Assembly: GCA_000165345.1 (NCBI GenBank)
Contig: CM000434.1
Span: 64,001 to 128,000 of the forward strand
DNA length: 64,000 nucleotides
Reading direction: 5' to 3'
Shown: in pieces, positions 400-46,123 of the stretch
Position numbering within the stretch: the first letter of the stretch is position 1
Layout of the letters: every line of letters starts with the position of its first letter
Notes under the pieces: model-generated
Told to the model about the DNA's origin: nothing
Seen by the model: the letters and a program-made list of their open reading frames with translations, nothing else
Database searches by the model: none
Translations under genes and position numbers: made by a program

Positions 400-490
400 T
401 TTTATCCACATGAAATAATTTTTTATATACCGGTCAAAAATTTACACGTAAAATTGTATTTTTCAATACCGGTTATTCGTAATACGAATT
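400..490. promoter_or_regulatory. Composite GC-containing motif cluster (CCACATG / ATACCGGT x2 / ACACGTAA / CGTAATACG) about 320-400 bp upstream of the DGAT2-family gene
   Basis: ccacatg 406-412; ataccggt 427-434 and 467-474; acacgtaa 445-452. The same motif set recurs in at least six other intergenic regions (see findings). Confidence 0.35.
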
Positions 491-804
491 ATTTTGGGTA
501 AACAAAGAGGAAAAAAAAAGGAAAAAAGAAAAAAAATAATAAACATTAATTTTATAATTTAGGATAATTTTCAAGCAATATTAGTTTTTGGTGAAGTTTT
601 GAAAAAAAAACAGATAAATTGAATTTGTTTGTTATTTTATTTGTGGGGAAATTTTTTGTTAATTATTATTATTATTGGTTTTGGTAATTATATTTGTGTG
701 AAAGTAAACTCTTATGGTTTCGATAAAAATTATTGATTAATAATATAAATAAAGACAAAGAAAAAAAAAGAAAATTTGGCTTATTTTTAAACTATTTGGT
801 TAAT

Positions 805-1956
805 ATGGAGAATGCAAAAAATGAAATTTTAATTAAAGAATCTGATTGTAAAATAAAAATAATTGATATTCCAGTTGATTTTCAACAAGGCGGAATAAGA
901 CCAATTTTAGGATGTATTTCATATACAATACTAATTTTAACATGGGGAATTTCAATATTAATACCTGTTGGACTAGTATATTGGTTTTTTCTTGGTAATT
1001 GGAATATGATAATACTTTTATTAACCATAATTTTAGTACCAATAATTTTTAATTGGCATGATAATGTTCCTGGTGTTATTAAGTATTTAAGTAATTTATT
1101 AACAAAAGATGTTCATCATTGGACTGGTAAGTTAATTAATTTTTATTCTCTATTTTTAATAATTATTTTTATTTTAATTTTAGGCCCTGGTAAAATAATT
1201 ATTGAAGATCCAGATTTTGATGTTAATTCAAAACAATTATTATGCTTACATCCACATGGTATATTGGGAATAGGATCTATGTATATTATTATAAGTGGAA
1301 TTTTTTCAAAGTTACATTTAATTGTTACAGAATCACTAGTATGGTTGCAACCGATTATTAGTGTAATATTAAATTCAACAGTAAAATTAAGAGGAGCCTC
1401 ACATTTTTCATTTAAGCAAACTATGAAAAGAGAAGAGGGACCATTAGTCATGTTTCCTGGAGGGTTTCATGAAACTATACTTTTAAATTGGGGTAAAGAT
1501 GCCGTATTTATTGAAAGAAGATTTGGTTTTATTAAATATTGTTTAAAGTACAATTATTTAATACGTCCAGTTTATGTTTTTGGTGAATGTTTATCTTTTC
1601 ACCAATTCCAACATTTTAAGAGATTTAGATGGATTCTTAATGATTTCAGTTTACCAAGTGTTATATTTTGTGGCGAAACTTGGTGGAATCCTTTATTACC
1701 TCTCAGAAATGTACCTTATTTAATAGTTATTGGAAAACCAATCAATTCTGATATTATTAATAATTCTTACAATTCTAAATTAAACAATAACAATAATCCT
1801 TCTAGAGAAATGGTTAAAAAATACCATTCACTTTATATTCAAAATCTCAAAAGAATTTATACCCAATATTCACCATTCTACCAATCTTTTTTTAATGATC
1901 ATCCTTTACTTGAAAGATATATTCAAAACAAGTCAAAAGAACTTACTATTGAGTAG
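805..1956 (+). CDS. Diacylglycerol/monoacylglycerol O-acyltransferase, DGAT2/MGAT family
   Basis: Supplied ORF 733..1956 starts with TTG. First in-frame ATG is at 805. The translation has the DGAT2-family HPHG motif (LHPHGILGIG), FPGGxxE (MFPGGFHET) and an RRGF-like block (ERRFGFIKYCL), with an N-terminal hydrophobic segment. A candidate in-frame intron lies at 1127..1183 (GTAAGT...TTTTAG, 57 nt). It could instead encode a hydrophobic stretch. Confidence 0.7.
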   Translation: MENAKNEILIKESDCKIKIIDIPVDFQQGGIRPILGCISYTILILTWGISILIPVGLVYWFFLGNWNMIILLLTIILVPIIFNWHDNVPGVIKYLSNLLTKDVHHWTGKLINFYSLFLIIIFILILGPGKIIIEDPDFDVNSKQLLCLHPHGILGIGSMYIIISGIFSKLHLIVTESLVWLQPIISVILNSTVKLRGASHFSFKQTMKREEGPLVMFPGGFHETILLNWGKDAVFIERRFGFIKYCLKYNYLIRPVYVFGECLSFHQFQHFKRFRWILNDFSLPSVIFCGETWWNPLLPLRNVPYLIVIGKPINSDIINNSYNSKLNNNNNPSREMVKKYHSLYIQNLKRIYTQYSPFYQSFFNDHPLLERYIQNKSKELTIE

Positions 1957-2228
1957 TTTACCAACTTAACTCCTTTTTTTTTTTTTTTTTTTCTCCCTTT
2001 CCAAATTGAATACATTCATTACAGAAAATGAAAATAAGTTCATAAAAATAACAAAATATTTATTAAAGAAAAAAAAAAATAACAATAAAAAACAATAAGA
2101 AAAATATTATTACTATTATGAATAATAATAATACCAATAATTCTATCATATATATCTCTAAGAAATCCGATTTCTACAGATAATAATCATCTTTTCTTCT
2201 TTTTTTTTTTTCTCCCTTCTCTCTTCAT

Positions 2229-43630: not shown

Positions 43631-43856
43631 AAAAAAATGTTAAATATATATATATATATATTTATATAATATTAATCAGAATATCAAAATCATTAATATA
43701 TTTAAAGTATAATGATTATGAATTCGAGAAAAAAAAACGAGAAGATTTTCAGTATATTTCATTTTATTATGTATTTCACTTGATTCCTTTTTTTTTTAAG
43801 TATAATTATTTTATCTTAATATTCCTTCAATAAGCATTTGGAGCAATTTCACAATA

Positions 43857-45170
43857 TTAATGCGTATGAATATGTGAATGGCCGTGATGGTGATGATGTA
43901 GTGTACATCCTCCAAGTTTATGTTGAATAATATTAATAATGGAAACAAGTAAAATTCCAAGAAGGAAAAGAATAAACTTTTGTTTTCTATTCTCACCACA
44001 ATTAAATTCATCAAGTATCATTTCTCCAAGAGCAACATATAATAGGGCGCCGGATGATATGCATGTGAGAACTACATTTATCAAAGGGCTATTAATATAT
44101 GAGAATAATTGTCCAATAATAATACCTAATGGTGACATAAGTATAAAAGATATTAATAATTGATTAACCGTAGTTTTGGAAATTTCAGTATGTTTTTTGA
44201 TTCCAGCAGAAACAGCAATTCCTTCAACCCATTTATGCGCAATAATAACTAAAGTAATGGTTAAAACTGAAATATGATTCTTAGAAATTCCAACAAGCAT
44301 TCCTTCAAAAATGGCATGAACTGAAAGTGCAGAAACAAGAAAGTATACATTTAATGTTGAATTGGTTTTTGATTTTTGAATATTAGATTCTTGTTTTAAA
44401 GAGACTTGTGAGGTTGAAATATTACGATGTTGATTATTAATCATATTAGACTTTTCATTATATAATTCTGAAGATTCTATTAAAGGAGACTTGATTCCAA
44501 GGTTTTTAGAATCAGATTCTTCATAATGCATATTATTATAATTATTAGATTCGCATGTTTGCGAATTAATTGGAATAATAATATTTGAATCTGAATTACC
44601 TTCTGAAGGACAAGTAAAGCTGAAACTATTACTATTGCTATTATTATTATTATTATTATTATTATTATTATTATTATTATTATTATTATTATTATTATCA
44701 TTGCGATGATGATGATGATAATGACTTTTCTTTTCACCATTAACTATGGAATAAACATCACTATTACTTACACCAACACATCCAGGATCCTTATGATGGT
44801 GATGATGATGGTCTCTATTATGGGGGAAAGAATGATCATGCATATGGAATTGAGCAACATCTTGTGGTGAAAATAATGCTTTTTCAAAGAATAAAATAAT
44901 TGTAAGTCCAAAAAGAGTTAGATAAGCAACAATAGGTATTTCAACTCCAATAAATTTCAAACTAATGTCATTAGCTCTAACAATTTCTTCAGCTTCTGGT
45001 ATAAGGTGGCAAAGAGATAAAGATAAAAGTGTTCCGCCTGCAAAAACATTAATATATTGTAAAAGGATGGGATTCAAATATCCAATATATATTGGGATAT
45101 ATACTCCAATACCACCAACAAAGATAACAGAAATAAATGAAAGAATTTTACTTAATATTAATTTATTCAT
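43857..45170 (-). CDS. ZIP (ZRT/IRT-like, SLC39) family zinc/metal transporter with His-rich cytosolic loop
   Basis: ATG 45170. 8 hydrophobic helices. Histidine-rich loop (HDHHHHHHKDPG…HYHHHHRND) between TM3 and TM4. ZIP signature helices HAIFEGMLVGI and HKWVEGIAVSAG (HxxxEG motifs). His-rich C-terminus. Confidence 0.75.
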   Translation of the reverse strand: MNKLILSKILSFISVIFVGGIGVYIPIYIGYLNPILLQYINVFAGGTLLSLSLCHLIPEAEEIVRANDISLKFIGVEIPIVAYLTLFGLTIILFFEKALFSPQDVAQFHMHDHSFPHNRDHHHHHHKDPGCVGVSNSDVYSIVNGEKKSHYHHHHRNDNNNNNNNNNNNNNNNNNNNSNSNSFSFTCPSEGNSDSNIIIPINSQTCESNNYNNMHYEESDSKNLGIKSPLIESSELYNEKSNMINNQHRNISTSQVSLKQESNIQKSKTNSTLNVYFLVSALSVHAIFEGMLVGISKNHISVLTITLVIIAHKWVEGIAVSAGIKKHTEISKTTVNQLLISFILMSPLGIIIGQLFSYINSPLINVVLTCISSGALLYVALGEMILDEFNCGENRKQKFILFLLGILLVSIINIIQHKLGGCTLHHHHHGHSHIHTH

Positions 45171-46012
45171 TTTACTTGGAATTTTTCTTTTATTATTGCT
45201 ATTTTAAAGTAATGGCGTATTTTTATGTTAAAAAAAAATAAAAAAGAAAGGTTTGGGTTAATAAATGTATTTATTAAATTATATTTGATTTCAAGTATTA
45301 ATATAAAAATTGGTTTGTTAATAATTCTTGGAAATGTATTAAGCTGAAGTGATTGACTTTATTTATATTAAACTTGTAGAAAGTCAGCTGTTCTAATTCT
45401 CACATTACTATCTCGAATAAAGAATTGAAAATTTATTGATTTTGATAATAAAAAAATAATTACAATAATAAATAATAAATTCTGTTAAAATTATTTATTA
45501 TCTTAAATCTTCTTTCTTAATTATAATCCTACAGTCCATAAAAAAAAAAAAAGGAAATAATCTTAATTTAGAGGCTAGTAATATATATGAAGTATTTGGA
45601 CATTGGCGCCAAAATTGCTTTTGATACTTTCGAGACATTTATTAAAATATTAAAGTATAAATTTAAAAAATTACGATAAATTGTTAGTAAATATAATTAT
45701 AAAGCATGATTTTAAAATTTAGATGTTTTTTTCTCAAATATAATGAAAGAAAAATCTTAAATTATAATTCATGAACAAATATGTAGTTACAAAGTCACTT
45801 ATTATACAATTTTATCTAGATTTATTAAAAAAATAAAATAAAAAAAGAATAAAATCTATCAAAAAAATGAGAATTTGTTTAATTATTTCAATTACTATAG
45901 TTATATAGAACTTTTTCACAATTTAAATTAATATGCATTAGTTTTTTATTCATAAAATATATTAATTGTATTATTATCATTTTTGATTATTAAATACGAA
46001 TTTTTGTTAATA

Positions 46013-46123
46013 TTACGTAATTATTTAATATTACCGGTATAGGGAAAACTTGCTACCATCATATTTATACACGTAATCAAATATATATTTTCTGTCCACA
46101 TCACTGCATGCATTACATGCAAA
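46013..46123. promoter_or_regulatory. Motif cluster in the divergent ZIP/PDE intergenic region: TTACGTAATT, TTACCGGTATAGGG, ACACGTAAT, TGTCCACATCA (reverse complement of CATGTGGACA-like), TGCATGCATTACATGCAAA
   Basis: 46013-46022, 46030-46043, 46069-46077, 46093-46103, 46105-46123. Confidence 0.35.

Follow-up and report, generated by a model that had tools for sequence, protein, structure and literature searches.

The window analyzed here, a 64-kb stretch whose positions we count from its first letter, belongs to Cryptosporidium parvum chromosome 6 and spans genes cgd6_260 to cgd6_540, a compact eukaryotic region with about one gene per 2.4 kb. Seven patches of its intergenic DNA (M1 to M7) carry a recurrent vocabulary of short motifs centered on ACCGGT, and we consider it very probable, arguing from the sequence, that these patches are combinatorial cis-regulatory modules in C. 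parvum promoters, each a cluster of candidate sites for several sequence-specific proteins. A first-pass annotation had proposed a modular cis-regulatory code rather than copies of a transposon, and this distinction is upheld by the lack of extended similarity among patches, their 5' intergenic placement, their motif-level conservation, and their reordering in Cryptosporidium felis. Gene names were anchored through supplement tables of two papers and the rest were counted along, so some identifiers are inferred. The modules and their motifs are as follows.

M1, 405-473, 339-400 bp 5' of the DGAT gene cgd6_260 (ATG 805, + strand): TCCACAT 405-411, ATACCGGT 427-434, CACGTAA 445-451, ATACCGGT 466-473.
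M2, 13250-13354, 190-290 bp 5' of a signal-peptide gene (ATG 13540, + strand; cgd6_310, inferred): CATGCA 13250, TGCATGC 13289, CATGTGGACAATATT 13318-13332, composite ATACCGGTGCATGCAAA 13338-13354.
M3, 28844-28929, 473-552 bp 5' of the 845-aa gene cgd6_390 (ATG 28377, - strand): CACGTCA 28844, CATGCATG 28859-28866, TCCACATG 28877-28884, ATACCGGTAT 28920-28929.
M4, 34627-34806, the richest module, 116-289 bp 5' of cgd6_420 (377 aa, ATG 34517, - strand): TTACGTCATGTGGACAATATT 34626-34646, ATACCGGTG 34692-34700, ACATGCA 34704-34710, ATACCGGTC 34731-34739, G-run 34755-34767, TGCATGCA 34799-34806.
M5, 35086-35162, 194-264 bp 5' of the 111-aa signal-peptide gene cgd6_430 (ATG 35350, + strand): GCATGCA 35085-35091, E2F site TTTGGGCGCCA 35093-35104, CACCGGTATAT 35137-35147, TACGTAAT 35156-35163.
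M6, 39885-39957, 133-199 bp 5' of the BSD-like 688-aa gene cgd6_450 (ATG 39758, - strand): ATGTGGA 39885-39891, palindromic ATACCGGTATAG 39904-39915, ACACGTAAT 39939-39947, TTACGTCAT 39950-39958.
M7, 46014-46121, in the 1.9-kb divergent intergenic region between the ZIP gene cgd6_490 (ATG 45170, - strand) and the phosphodiesterase (PDE) gene cgd6_500 (ATG 47056, + strand): TTACGTAA 46013-46020, TTACCGGTATAGG 46031-46043, ACACGTAAT 46069-46077, GTCCACAT 46094-46101, TGCATGCA 46105-46112, ACATGCAAA 46115-46123.

Motif order, spacing, and orientation vary among the modules, with sites on either strand, and certain composites recur: ATACCGG(T/C)G followed after 0-4 nt by CATGCA(A), ACGTCATGTGGAC, and ACACGTAAT-NN-TTACGTCAT. 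The ACGT-core elements take the forms CACGTAA, CACGTCA, TACGTAA, and TACGTCA in C. parvum, and all pairings of A-, C-, and G-box half-sites occur. The 10-mer ATACCGGTAT is found at 28920-28929, 39904-39913, and 17405-17414, and in the right flank of the window at 19311-19320 of L011 (we refer to the C. parvum DNA left and right of the window as L010 and L011). An exact 15-mer, CATGTGGACAATATT, is common to 13318 and 34632, as had been observed; ACCGGTATAG(A/G)G is likewise common to M6 and M7, at 39906 and 46033, one base off the positions first given. The G-run that had been noted in M4 is present. All seven patches had been taken as 5'-flanking or divergent-promoter DNA, which holds, M1-M6 being 110-550 bp upstream of an ATG and M7 (46013-46123) farther off, about 850-1040 bp from both flanking ATGs. 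A separate conserved E2F site at 45605 is nearer ZIP, and M7 therefore more likely serves PDE or an unannotated transcript than ZIP.

The first-pass count of 11 copies of ACCGGT in the window, at the positions it gave, is correct; dinucleotide shuffles lead one to expect 0.68, and none of 100 reaches 11. All nine noncoding copies fall inside the seven patches. Every one of the 11 copies lies within ATACCGG in one orientation or both (14 matches over the two strands compared to 0.67 expected, again reached in 0/100 shuffles); the true core is therefore ATACCGG(T), so that ACCGGT stands as a motif but not as the core itself, which is better written ATACCGG(T/C). By the same shuffles YACGTMA occurs 15 times in the window (4.18 expected), CATGTGGA six times (0.94 expected), and TGCATGCA as three exact octamers (0.38 expected), all three of them inside patches; for each of the last two words, one shuffle in 100 reaches the observed count. 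When all k-mers in the 21.4 kb of noncoding window DNA are ranked, without bias, against an order-2 Markov expectation and A/T low-complexity words are set aside, the top words are ATACCGGT (11 compared to 0.13 expected), ACCGGT (9 compared to 0.37), and (T)GCATGC(A) (9 compared to 0.38), followed by the E2F words GGCGCC(A), ACGTAAT/ACACGTAA, and TCATGTGG. Low-complexity words apart, ATACCGG(T) is the most enriched word of this noncoding DNA.

The motifs also cluster. With random placement in noncoding DNA as the null, the noncoding motif copies lying within 100 bp of one of the nine noncoding ACCGGT sites number 6/6 for ATGTGGA, 8/13 for YACGTMA, and 5/6 for GCATGC (P ≤ 1e-4), and 9/12 for CATGCA, the P values across the four motifs ranging from <5e-5 to 4e-3. 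The same five of six GCATGC copies lie within modules and fit the definition (T/C)GCATGC(A/G) of the apicomplexan motif AP2_1. E2F sites show no such proximity (1/7, P = 0.41); the association is therefore specific, rather than a general pile-up of promoter motifs.

For comparison with other species, PP2C orthologs led to the syntenic loci of C. meleagridis, Cryptosporidium sp. chipmunk genotype I, C. ubiquitum, C. canis, and C. bovis, while a beta-COP query yielded, among many matches in distant eukaryotes, only the loci of C. felis (L008) and C. muris (L012, 23 kb). An ortholog search with the hypothetical open reading frame (ORF) at 7696-8649 retrieved C. parvum itself only. Gene order is conserved across the syntenic loci. 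In five to seven other species (partly so in C. bovis and C. felis) the promoter motifs form conserved islands amid DNA that has diverged: 56-75% of motif columns are invariant, compared to 19-23% of other intergenic columns (permutation P ≤ 2e-4), so the motifs are under purifying selection. In the three closest species TACCGG has a density of 1.0-1.1 per kb in noncoding DNA but 0-0.07 per kb in coding DNA, and it always occurs as ATACCGG.

At M6 (alignment A1, five species) the islands are ATGTGGA, (A)TACCGGTATAG (CGCCGGTATGG in C. canis), and GACACGTAAT-NN-ATTACGTCAT, with 75% of motif columns invariant compared to 19% elsewhere (P = 2e-4). The divergent region of M4 and M5 (alignment A2) contains the islands ATTACGTCATGTGGACAA, ATACCGGTG..TGCATGCA, TTTTGCCATACCGG(T/C)CTG, the G-run, TTTTGCATGCAA, CATGCAcATTTnGGCGCCA, and AATACCGGTAT..AAATTATACGTAA. 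All elements of M4 are conserved islands (permutation P ≤ 2e-4); TTTTGCCATACCGG(T/C)CTG and TTTTGCATGCAA do not vary at all, C. canis included, and in C. bovis ATACCGGC, TGCATGCA, and the G-run are retained. For M5, CATGCAcATTTnGGCGCCA is conserved in 5/5 species and AATACCGGTAT...AAATTATACGTAA in 4/5. At M7 (alignment A4, four to five species) CCGGTATAGG, ACACGTAAT, and GTCCACAT-NN-TGCATGCATTACATGCA (or TTTTGTCCACAT-NN-TGCATGCATTACATGCA) are conserved. The patch containing M3 (28841-28929, alignment A5) is conserved only in part: CATGCATG and TCCACATG are kept in four species, but C. meleagridis and chipmunk genotype I have lost ACCGGT, which reads CCCGGTATA in C. ubiquitum; the ACGT element of this patch is conserved, and in chipmunk genotype I and C. 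ubiquitum it has the form of a perfect palindrome, TGACACGTGTCA.

In C. felis, two orthologous promoters keep the motif set, with order and spacing changed. Its DGAT promoter (L008 15470-15512) carries ACACGTAA, GACCGGTAC, and ATGTGGACAA 180-220 bp 5' of the ATG, and its signal-peptide-gene promoter (L008 2874-2950) carries TGCATGCGCCGGTATAG, TCCACATGAA, TTACGTCA, and TGCATGCAAA in an order unlike that of M2. Clusters of binding sites are expected to behave in this way; a fixed structural element is not. The C. felis locus is 44% G+C, compared to about 25% in C. parvum, C. meleagridis, and C. ubiquitum, and the short motifs are retained anyway. In C. muris, the deepest branch, only ATGTGGA and CATGCA persist at the DGAT and signal-peptide-gene promoters, the DGAT promoter keeping only TTATCCACAT; a perfect ATACCGGTAT is present there in a different divergent promoter.

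C. parvum DNA beyond the window served as a test. To the right, one new intergenic ATACCGGTAT is found in 5 kb, with GTCCACAT, TTGCATGCAACATGCA, and TATGTGGAA within 90 bp of it; this ninth cluster (L011 19249-19332; GTCCACAT, TTGCATGCAACATGCA, TATACCGGTAT, and TATGTGGAA) occupies the divergent promoter of a kinase gene and a TRIP13-like AAA gene. The 9.2 kb to the left contain no ACCGGT, and the promoters there (MCM6, G-patch/APG6) carry E2F sites.

Module-like groupings also occur in coding DNA:

17366-17414, an eighth cluster, inside the coding ORF of the NIPA gene cgd6_320: CATGCA 17366, TTCATGTGGATAA 17372-17384 (a 13-mer equal to the M1 reverse strand), ATACCGGTAT 17405-17414.
L010 425-467, about 8.7 kb to the left, inside a 1183-aa coding gene: CACGTCA, ATCCACAT, and TGCATGCA within 45 bp, a second module-like cluster in coding DNA, without ACCGGT.
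L011 22368-22385, about 4 kb to the right, in the alanyl-tRNA synthetase coding region: GATACCGGTCCATGTGG, in which two motifs are adjacent.

The NIPA cluster could be an internal promoter, an antisense promoter, or a coincidence.

We propose that each module would act as a 70-180-bp cluster upstream of a transcription start, with its sites in flexible arrangement. The vocabulary comprises (A/T)ATACCGG(T/C), often extended to the palindrome ATACCGGTAT(AG); an ACGT core between two half-sites of A-, C-, or G-box type in any pairing (ACACGTAA, TTACGTCA, TTACGTAA, and, in relatives, CACGTG); (T/C)CATGTGGA(C/T)AA; and the AP2_1 site of ApiAP2 proteins, TGCATGCA/CATGCAA. Some modules add a G-run (the "G-box" of ApiAP2 proteins) or an E2F site. 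The cognate factors, occupying their sites cooperatively or additively, would recruit the transcription machinery and set promoter activity. The palindromes ATACCGGTAT, TGCATGCA, TTACGTAA, and TGACACGTGTCA suggest that the proteins bind DNA as dimers; half-sites mix freely around ACGT, as in the sites that bZIP dimers read, so that a bZIP-like dimer is a candidate there, and candidate readers of ATACCGGT and CATGTGGA would be an ApiAP2 domain without published specificity or a Myb-type protein. On this proposal, proteins of these kinds would bind the three new motifs (ATACCGG, ACGT-core, and CATGTGGA) and affect transcription. The modules appear to form a promoter class separate from the E2F-driven promoters (MCM6, beta-COP).

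Several observations weigh against this reading. The statistics cover one 64-kb window and about 14 kb of flanks, not the whole genome; M3 and M7 are unusually distant from the nearest ATG; and ACCGGT is not retained at the orthologous C. muris promoters. Peaks from sporozoite assays of transposase-accessible chromatin (ATAC-seq) are reported to be dominated by E2F motifs and to lack AP2 motifs (bioRxiv 10.1101/2025.01.17.633476); the modules, if active, must therefore act at other stages. The same finding agrees with a separation of the modules from the E2F promoters. The first-pass annotation had asked whether the associated genes share an expression pattern; they form no obvious co-expression group. 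Those found in Oberstaller 2013 (PMC3734150) are spread over clusters 17, 24, 55, 75, and 92, and cgd6_260, 310, 390, 430, 450, 500, and 550 are not in the differential-expression tables compared, the main one of which appears complete for chromosome 6. A single co-expressed regulon is thus unsupported, cgd6_420 alone having a clear stage signal.

Of the alternatives, the one that survives best, though we judge it improbable and unsupported, is that the module is a promoter code specific to the female-gamete (macrogamont) program. The right-flank module adjoins a TRIP13/Pch2-like AAA gene, and this family is linked to meiosis. The gene with the richest module, cgd6_420, is strongly female-specific: its mean (log2) is 1.8 in asexual stages, compared to 8.1 in females sorted in vitro and 7.2 in vivo (logFC 6.36), and its level is low at 24 h but high at 48 h (Tandel 2019 supplement). 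Yet the other module genes are missing from the same tables, and cgd6_300 is female-upregulated with a promoter that combines an E2F-like GGCGGG, a G-run, and CATGCA without ACCGGT; moreover, some gene identifiers were assigned by counting and are provisional.

Less likely still is action at the RNA level, as signals in the 5'-untranslated region (UTR) or in upstream ORFs, or as parts of unannotated small genes or noncoding RNAs. M3 and M7, at 470-1040 bp from the nearest ATG, could fall in long 5' UTRs or unannotated transcripts, and C. parvum is reported to have many long noncoding RNAs (bioRxiv 10.1101/2020.09.19.304907). But relative to the gene downstream the same motif can face either way (TCCACATG versus CATGTGGA), several motifs are DNA palindromes of the kind that is a hallmark of dimeric DNA-binding proteins, and TGCATGCA is a demonstrated ApiAP2 DNA site (PMC4117751). 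No ORF is conserved across the modules, where indels break the frames (alignments A1, A2, and A4), and scans of the window gave no match to Rfam families or tRNAs.

A chance or compositional artifact, in which G+C-containing words pile up in less AT-rich intergenic islands and are picked post hoc, we regard as very unlikely. The motifs were indeed selected after the fact from one window, and the CATGTGGA and TGCATGCA counts are only modestly above those of the shuffles; the count of ATACCGG is nevertheless reached by none of 100 shuffles, the unbiased scan recovers the same words, E2F sites, which are equally G+C-rich and promoter-located, do not co-localize, and the same motifs recur in the same contexts in other species and in C. 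parvum DNA outside the window. Finally, the view that all patches derive, as pieces or decayed copies, from a single dispersed repeat or transposable element is effectively refuted, for although exact 13-16-nt words are common to patches 21 kb apart, the longest blastn matches of the patches to each other and to the window are only 13-20 nt beyond A/T low complexity, motif order, spacing, and orientation differ among copies, and the modules sit without any insertion-polymorphism pattern at syntenic, orthologous promoters in 4-7 Cryptosporidium species, even where the neighboring protein is only 52-86% identical, with the motifs conserved and the intervening DNA not.

Positions 34068-39674 are 99.7% identical in DNA to CP044417.1 (GCA_015245375.1), which also has an identical copy of the 533-aa PP2C protein (36068-37669); this assembly is the C. 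parvum IOWA-ATCC reference (bioRxiv 10.1101/2021.07.07.451495). The supplement-table anchors, which therefore place the window about 61-125 kb into chromosome 6, are:

Immediately left of the window, cgd6_240, MCM6.
15613-18051, cgd6_320, NIPA (Mg transporter).
29302-30285, cgd6_400, Fip1.
31526-32314, cgd6_410, RRM.
43857-45170, - strand, cgd6_490, ZIP.
47056-52959, + strand, cgd6_500, PDE.
Immediately right of the window, cgd6_560, AlaRS.

A bacterial-style reading of ORFs, promoters, and RNAs was dropped, the window being eukaryotic and its Rfam and tRNA scans empty. Its G+C content is 22.7% (noncoding 19.8%, coding 24.2%), whereas the C. parvum genome as a whole is reported to have about 30%; this part of chromosome 6 is unusually AT-rich, and the proteins it encodes have long Asn runs. 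The assembly is a draft, with a 2.5-kb N gap at 21982-24481 and scattered Ns at 3836-4289, 24484-24973, and 40024-40519; Ns interrupt the beta-COP ORF (2229-6221 is one gene) and an acetyl-CoA transporter ORF. Each of the adjacent ORF pairs 37705-39758, 11254-13065, and 6795-8649 corresponds to one gene elsewhere in Cryptosporidium, with products of 688 aa (C. meleagridis, BSD-like), 582 aa, and 626 aa (both C. felis), which implies introns or sequencing frameshifts in the draft. The product of cgd6_420 (33384-34517) is uncharacterized and has no Pfam domain; it is 377 aa long in C. parvum and in 4/5 of the other species compared for it, and 405 aa in C. bovis. Tandel 2019 gives it a P. berghei ortholog, PBANKA_0603300.

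Cryptosporidium is a leading cause of childhood diarrhea, and little is understood of its gene regulation. Only about six motif families make up the accepted catalogue, and authors remark that for many upstream motifs no reader is known. Our finding covers about 80 kb of one chromosome and the orthologous loci; three further cross-species-conserved motifs, tightly paired with AP2_1, would widen this promoter vocabulary and set apart a non-E2F promoter class. They also provide concrete probes for new transcription factors (ATACCGGTATAG, ACACGTAAT-NN-TTACGTCAT, and TTCATGTGGACAA; also ACACGTAATAATTACGTCAT and TTCATGTGGACAATATT), and the compact modules are candidate stage-specific promoters for transgenic parasites, e.g. 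the ∼300 bp 5' of the female-specific cgd6_420.

Of the known motifs, AP2_1 is one of the closest. CATGCA had been labeled RY-like, but CATGCA/TGCATGCA is this apicomplexan site, not the plant RY element, and the run called G-box-like is the Cryptosporidium "G-box", an ApiAP2 site, not the plant CACGTG G-box (PMC3734150, PMC4117751). AP2_1 is bound in vitro, in protein-binding microarrays, by the C. parvum ApiAP2 domains cgd2_3490, cgd1_3520, cgd8_3230, and cgd5_4250, the last an ortholog of P. falciparum PF14_0633 (PMC4117751); the motif is over-represented in C. parvum noncoding DNA, was first noticed on chromosome 6, and is also over-represented upstream of co-expressed clusters (PMC3734150, PMC4117751). 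Microarrays of the same type show C. parvum ApiAP2 domains binding to the G-box as well (PMC3734150, PMC4117751). The TGCATGCA/GCATGCA/CATGCAA parts of our modules are AP2_1, which differs from the modules in being one of four or five components only. The descriptions of AP2_1 in PMC3734150 and PMC4117751 mention neither a systematic pairing with ATACCGGT, the ACGT core, or CATGTGGA, nor ATACCGG(T/C)GCATGCAAA, a composite conserved from C. parvum to C. felis.

The first-pass annotation had not recognized the combination as a described element, and this holds for part of it. TGCATGCA, the G-run, and E2F sites match published catalogue entries, while ATACCGGT, YACGTMA, and CATGTGGA have no counterpart among the 25 consensus motifs of Oberstaller 2013 (PMC3734150) or the six families in Table 3 of a 2025 review (PMC12246861). 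Strings for ATACCGGT, the ACGT core, and CATGTGGA are absent from the text of the Cryptosporidium motif papers compared. These three motifs, and their tight conserved association with AP2_1, appear to be previously undescribed.

E2F-type sites, GGCGCC and GGCGGG (PMC3734150, PMC4117751, PMC12246861), are often TTTGGCGCCAAA-like and mark the beta-COP, MCM6, G-patch/APG6, synaptobrevin/kinase, and other promoters:

In the window: 6751/6764 (stretch 6751-6786), 11002, 15144, 19558, 35098, 45605, and 54403/54416 (stretch 54403-54421).
In the flanks: L010 2484 and 7751; L011 21448.

The E2F/DP class (TTTGGCGCCAAA / GGCGGGAA) resembles the modules in being short, G+C-containing, conserved across species, and placed in compact 5' intergenic DNA; it differs in its independence of ACCGGT. 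The patch 35085-35216 does contain module motifs, as first described, but it also holds one of these known sites. The 9-mer ACACGTAAT occurs exactly at 6724, 19520, 39939, and 46069, and at the first two positions it adjoins E2F sites, not ACCGGT; the ACGT-core element is therefore common to both promoter classes. The syntenic locus of C. muris has no GGCGCC or GGCGGG in 23 kb, whereas loci of the C. parvum clade hold several conserved E2F sites, and E2F site usage or sequence may differ in gastric species.

Elsewhere, ACGT-core elements are read by bZIP dimers, examples being the plant A-, C-, and G-boxes, the CRE TGACGTCA, and the PAR site TTACGTAA. The label "bZIP-like ACGT core" of the first-pass annotation suits what we find: a central ACGT with interchangeable half-sites TTAC, TGAC, and ACAC/CCAC in all A-, C-, and G-box combinations, the perfect palindromes TTACGTAA (46013) and, in two species, TGACACGTGTCA, and the tandem ACACGTAAT-NN-TTACGTCAT of M6. 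The bZIP protein is nonetheless a candidate reader only, as an ApiAP2 or another factor could equally read these sites, which are absent from the published C. parvum motif tables; the recent review mentions bZIP only in passing (PMC12246861).

For ATACCGG, the text of PMC4117751 reports no ApiAP2 domain that reads TACCG or ACCGG(T), although an existing AP2 assignment is possible. A full-text search for the motif in connection with Cryptosporidium or ApiAP2 gave, apart from primers, a single relevant parallel, in oomycetes. Two elements share a TACCG/ACCGG(T) core without being identical to our motif and serve as leads only: TACCGACAT, the DRE/CRT element, which plant DREB proteins read through AP2/ERF domains, and AACCGGTT, the Grainyhead site. 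The DRE is a precedent for the reading of a TACCG-type core by an AP2-fold domain, while we know of no Grainyhead/CP2 factors in Apicomplexa. Myb (YAACNG) and Grainyhead (AACCGGTT) sites are one mismatch off or lack the ATACCGG core, and nothing supports these families as its readers.

The oomycete parallel comes from Plasmopara halstedii, in which ATACCGGTAT is "streme-5", found upstream of 206 genes and equated with the Phytophthora infestans "motif-9" GTACCGGTA of Seidl et al. 2012 (PMC10031896). The 10-mer is identical to that at four C. parvum sites, and in both cases it is upstream and was inferred computationally; yet stramenopiles are here compared with alveolates, the match may be coincidence, and the invariant core in Cryptosporidium is the half-palindrome ATACCGG, then T or C. 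As a speculation that we hold unlikely, though less so than any of the rival explanations above, ATACCGG(T)/ATACCGGTAT might be the site of a dimeric factor that, with bZIP-like proteins, CATGTGGA readers, and ApiAP2s, would constitute a second major promoter grammar of intestinal Cryptosporidium, complementary to E2F and serving developmentally regulated rather than proliferative genes; the identity with the oomycete motif would then mean that factor and site are ancient in the stramenopile-alveolate-rhizarian (SAR) supergroup.

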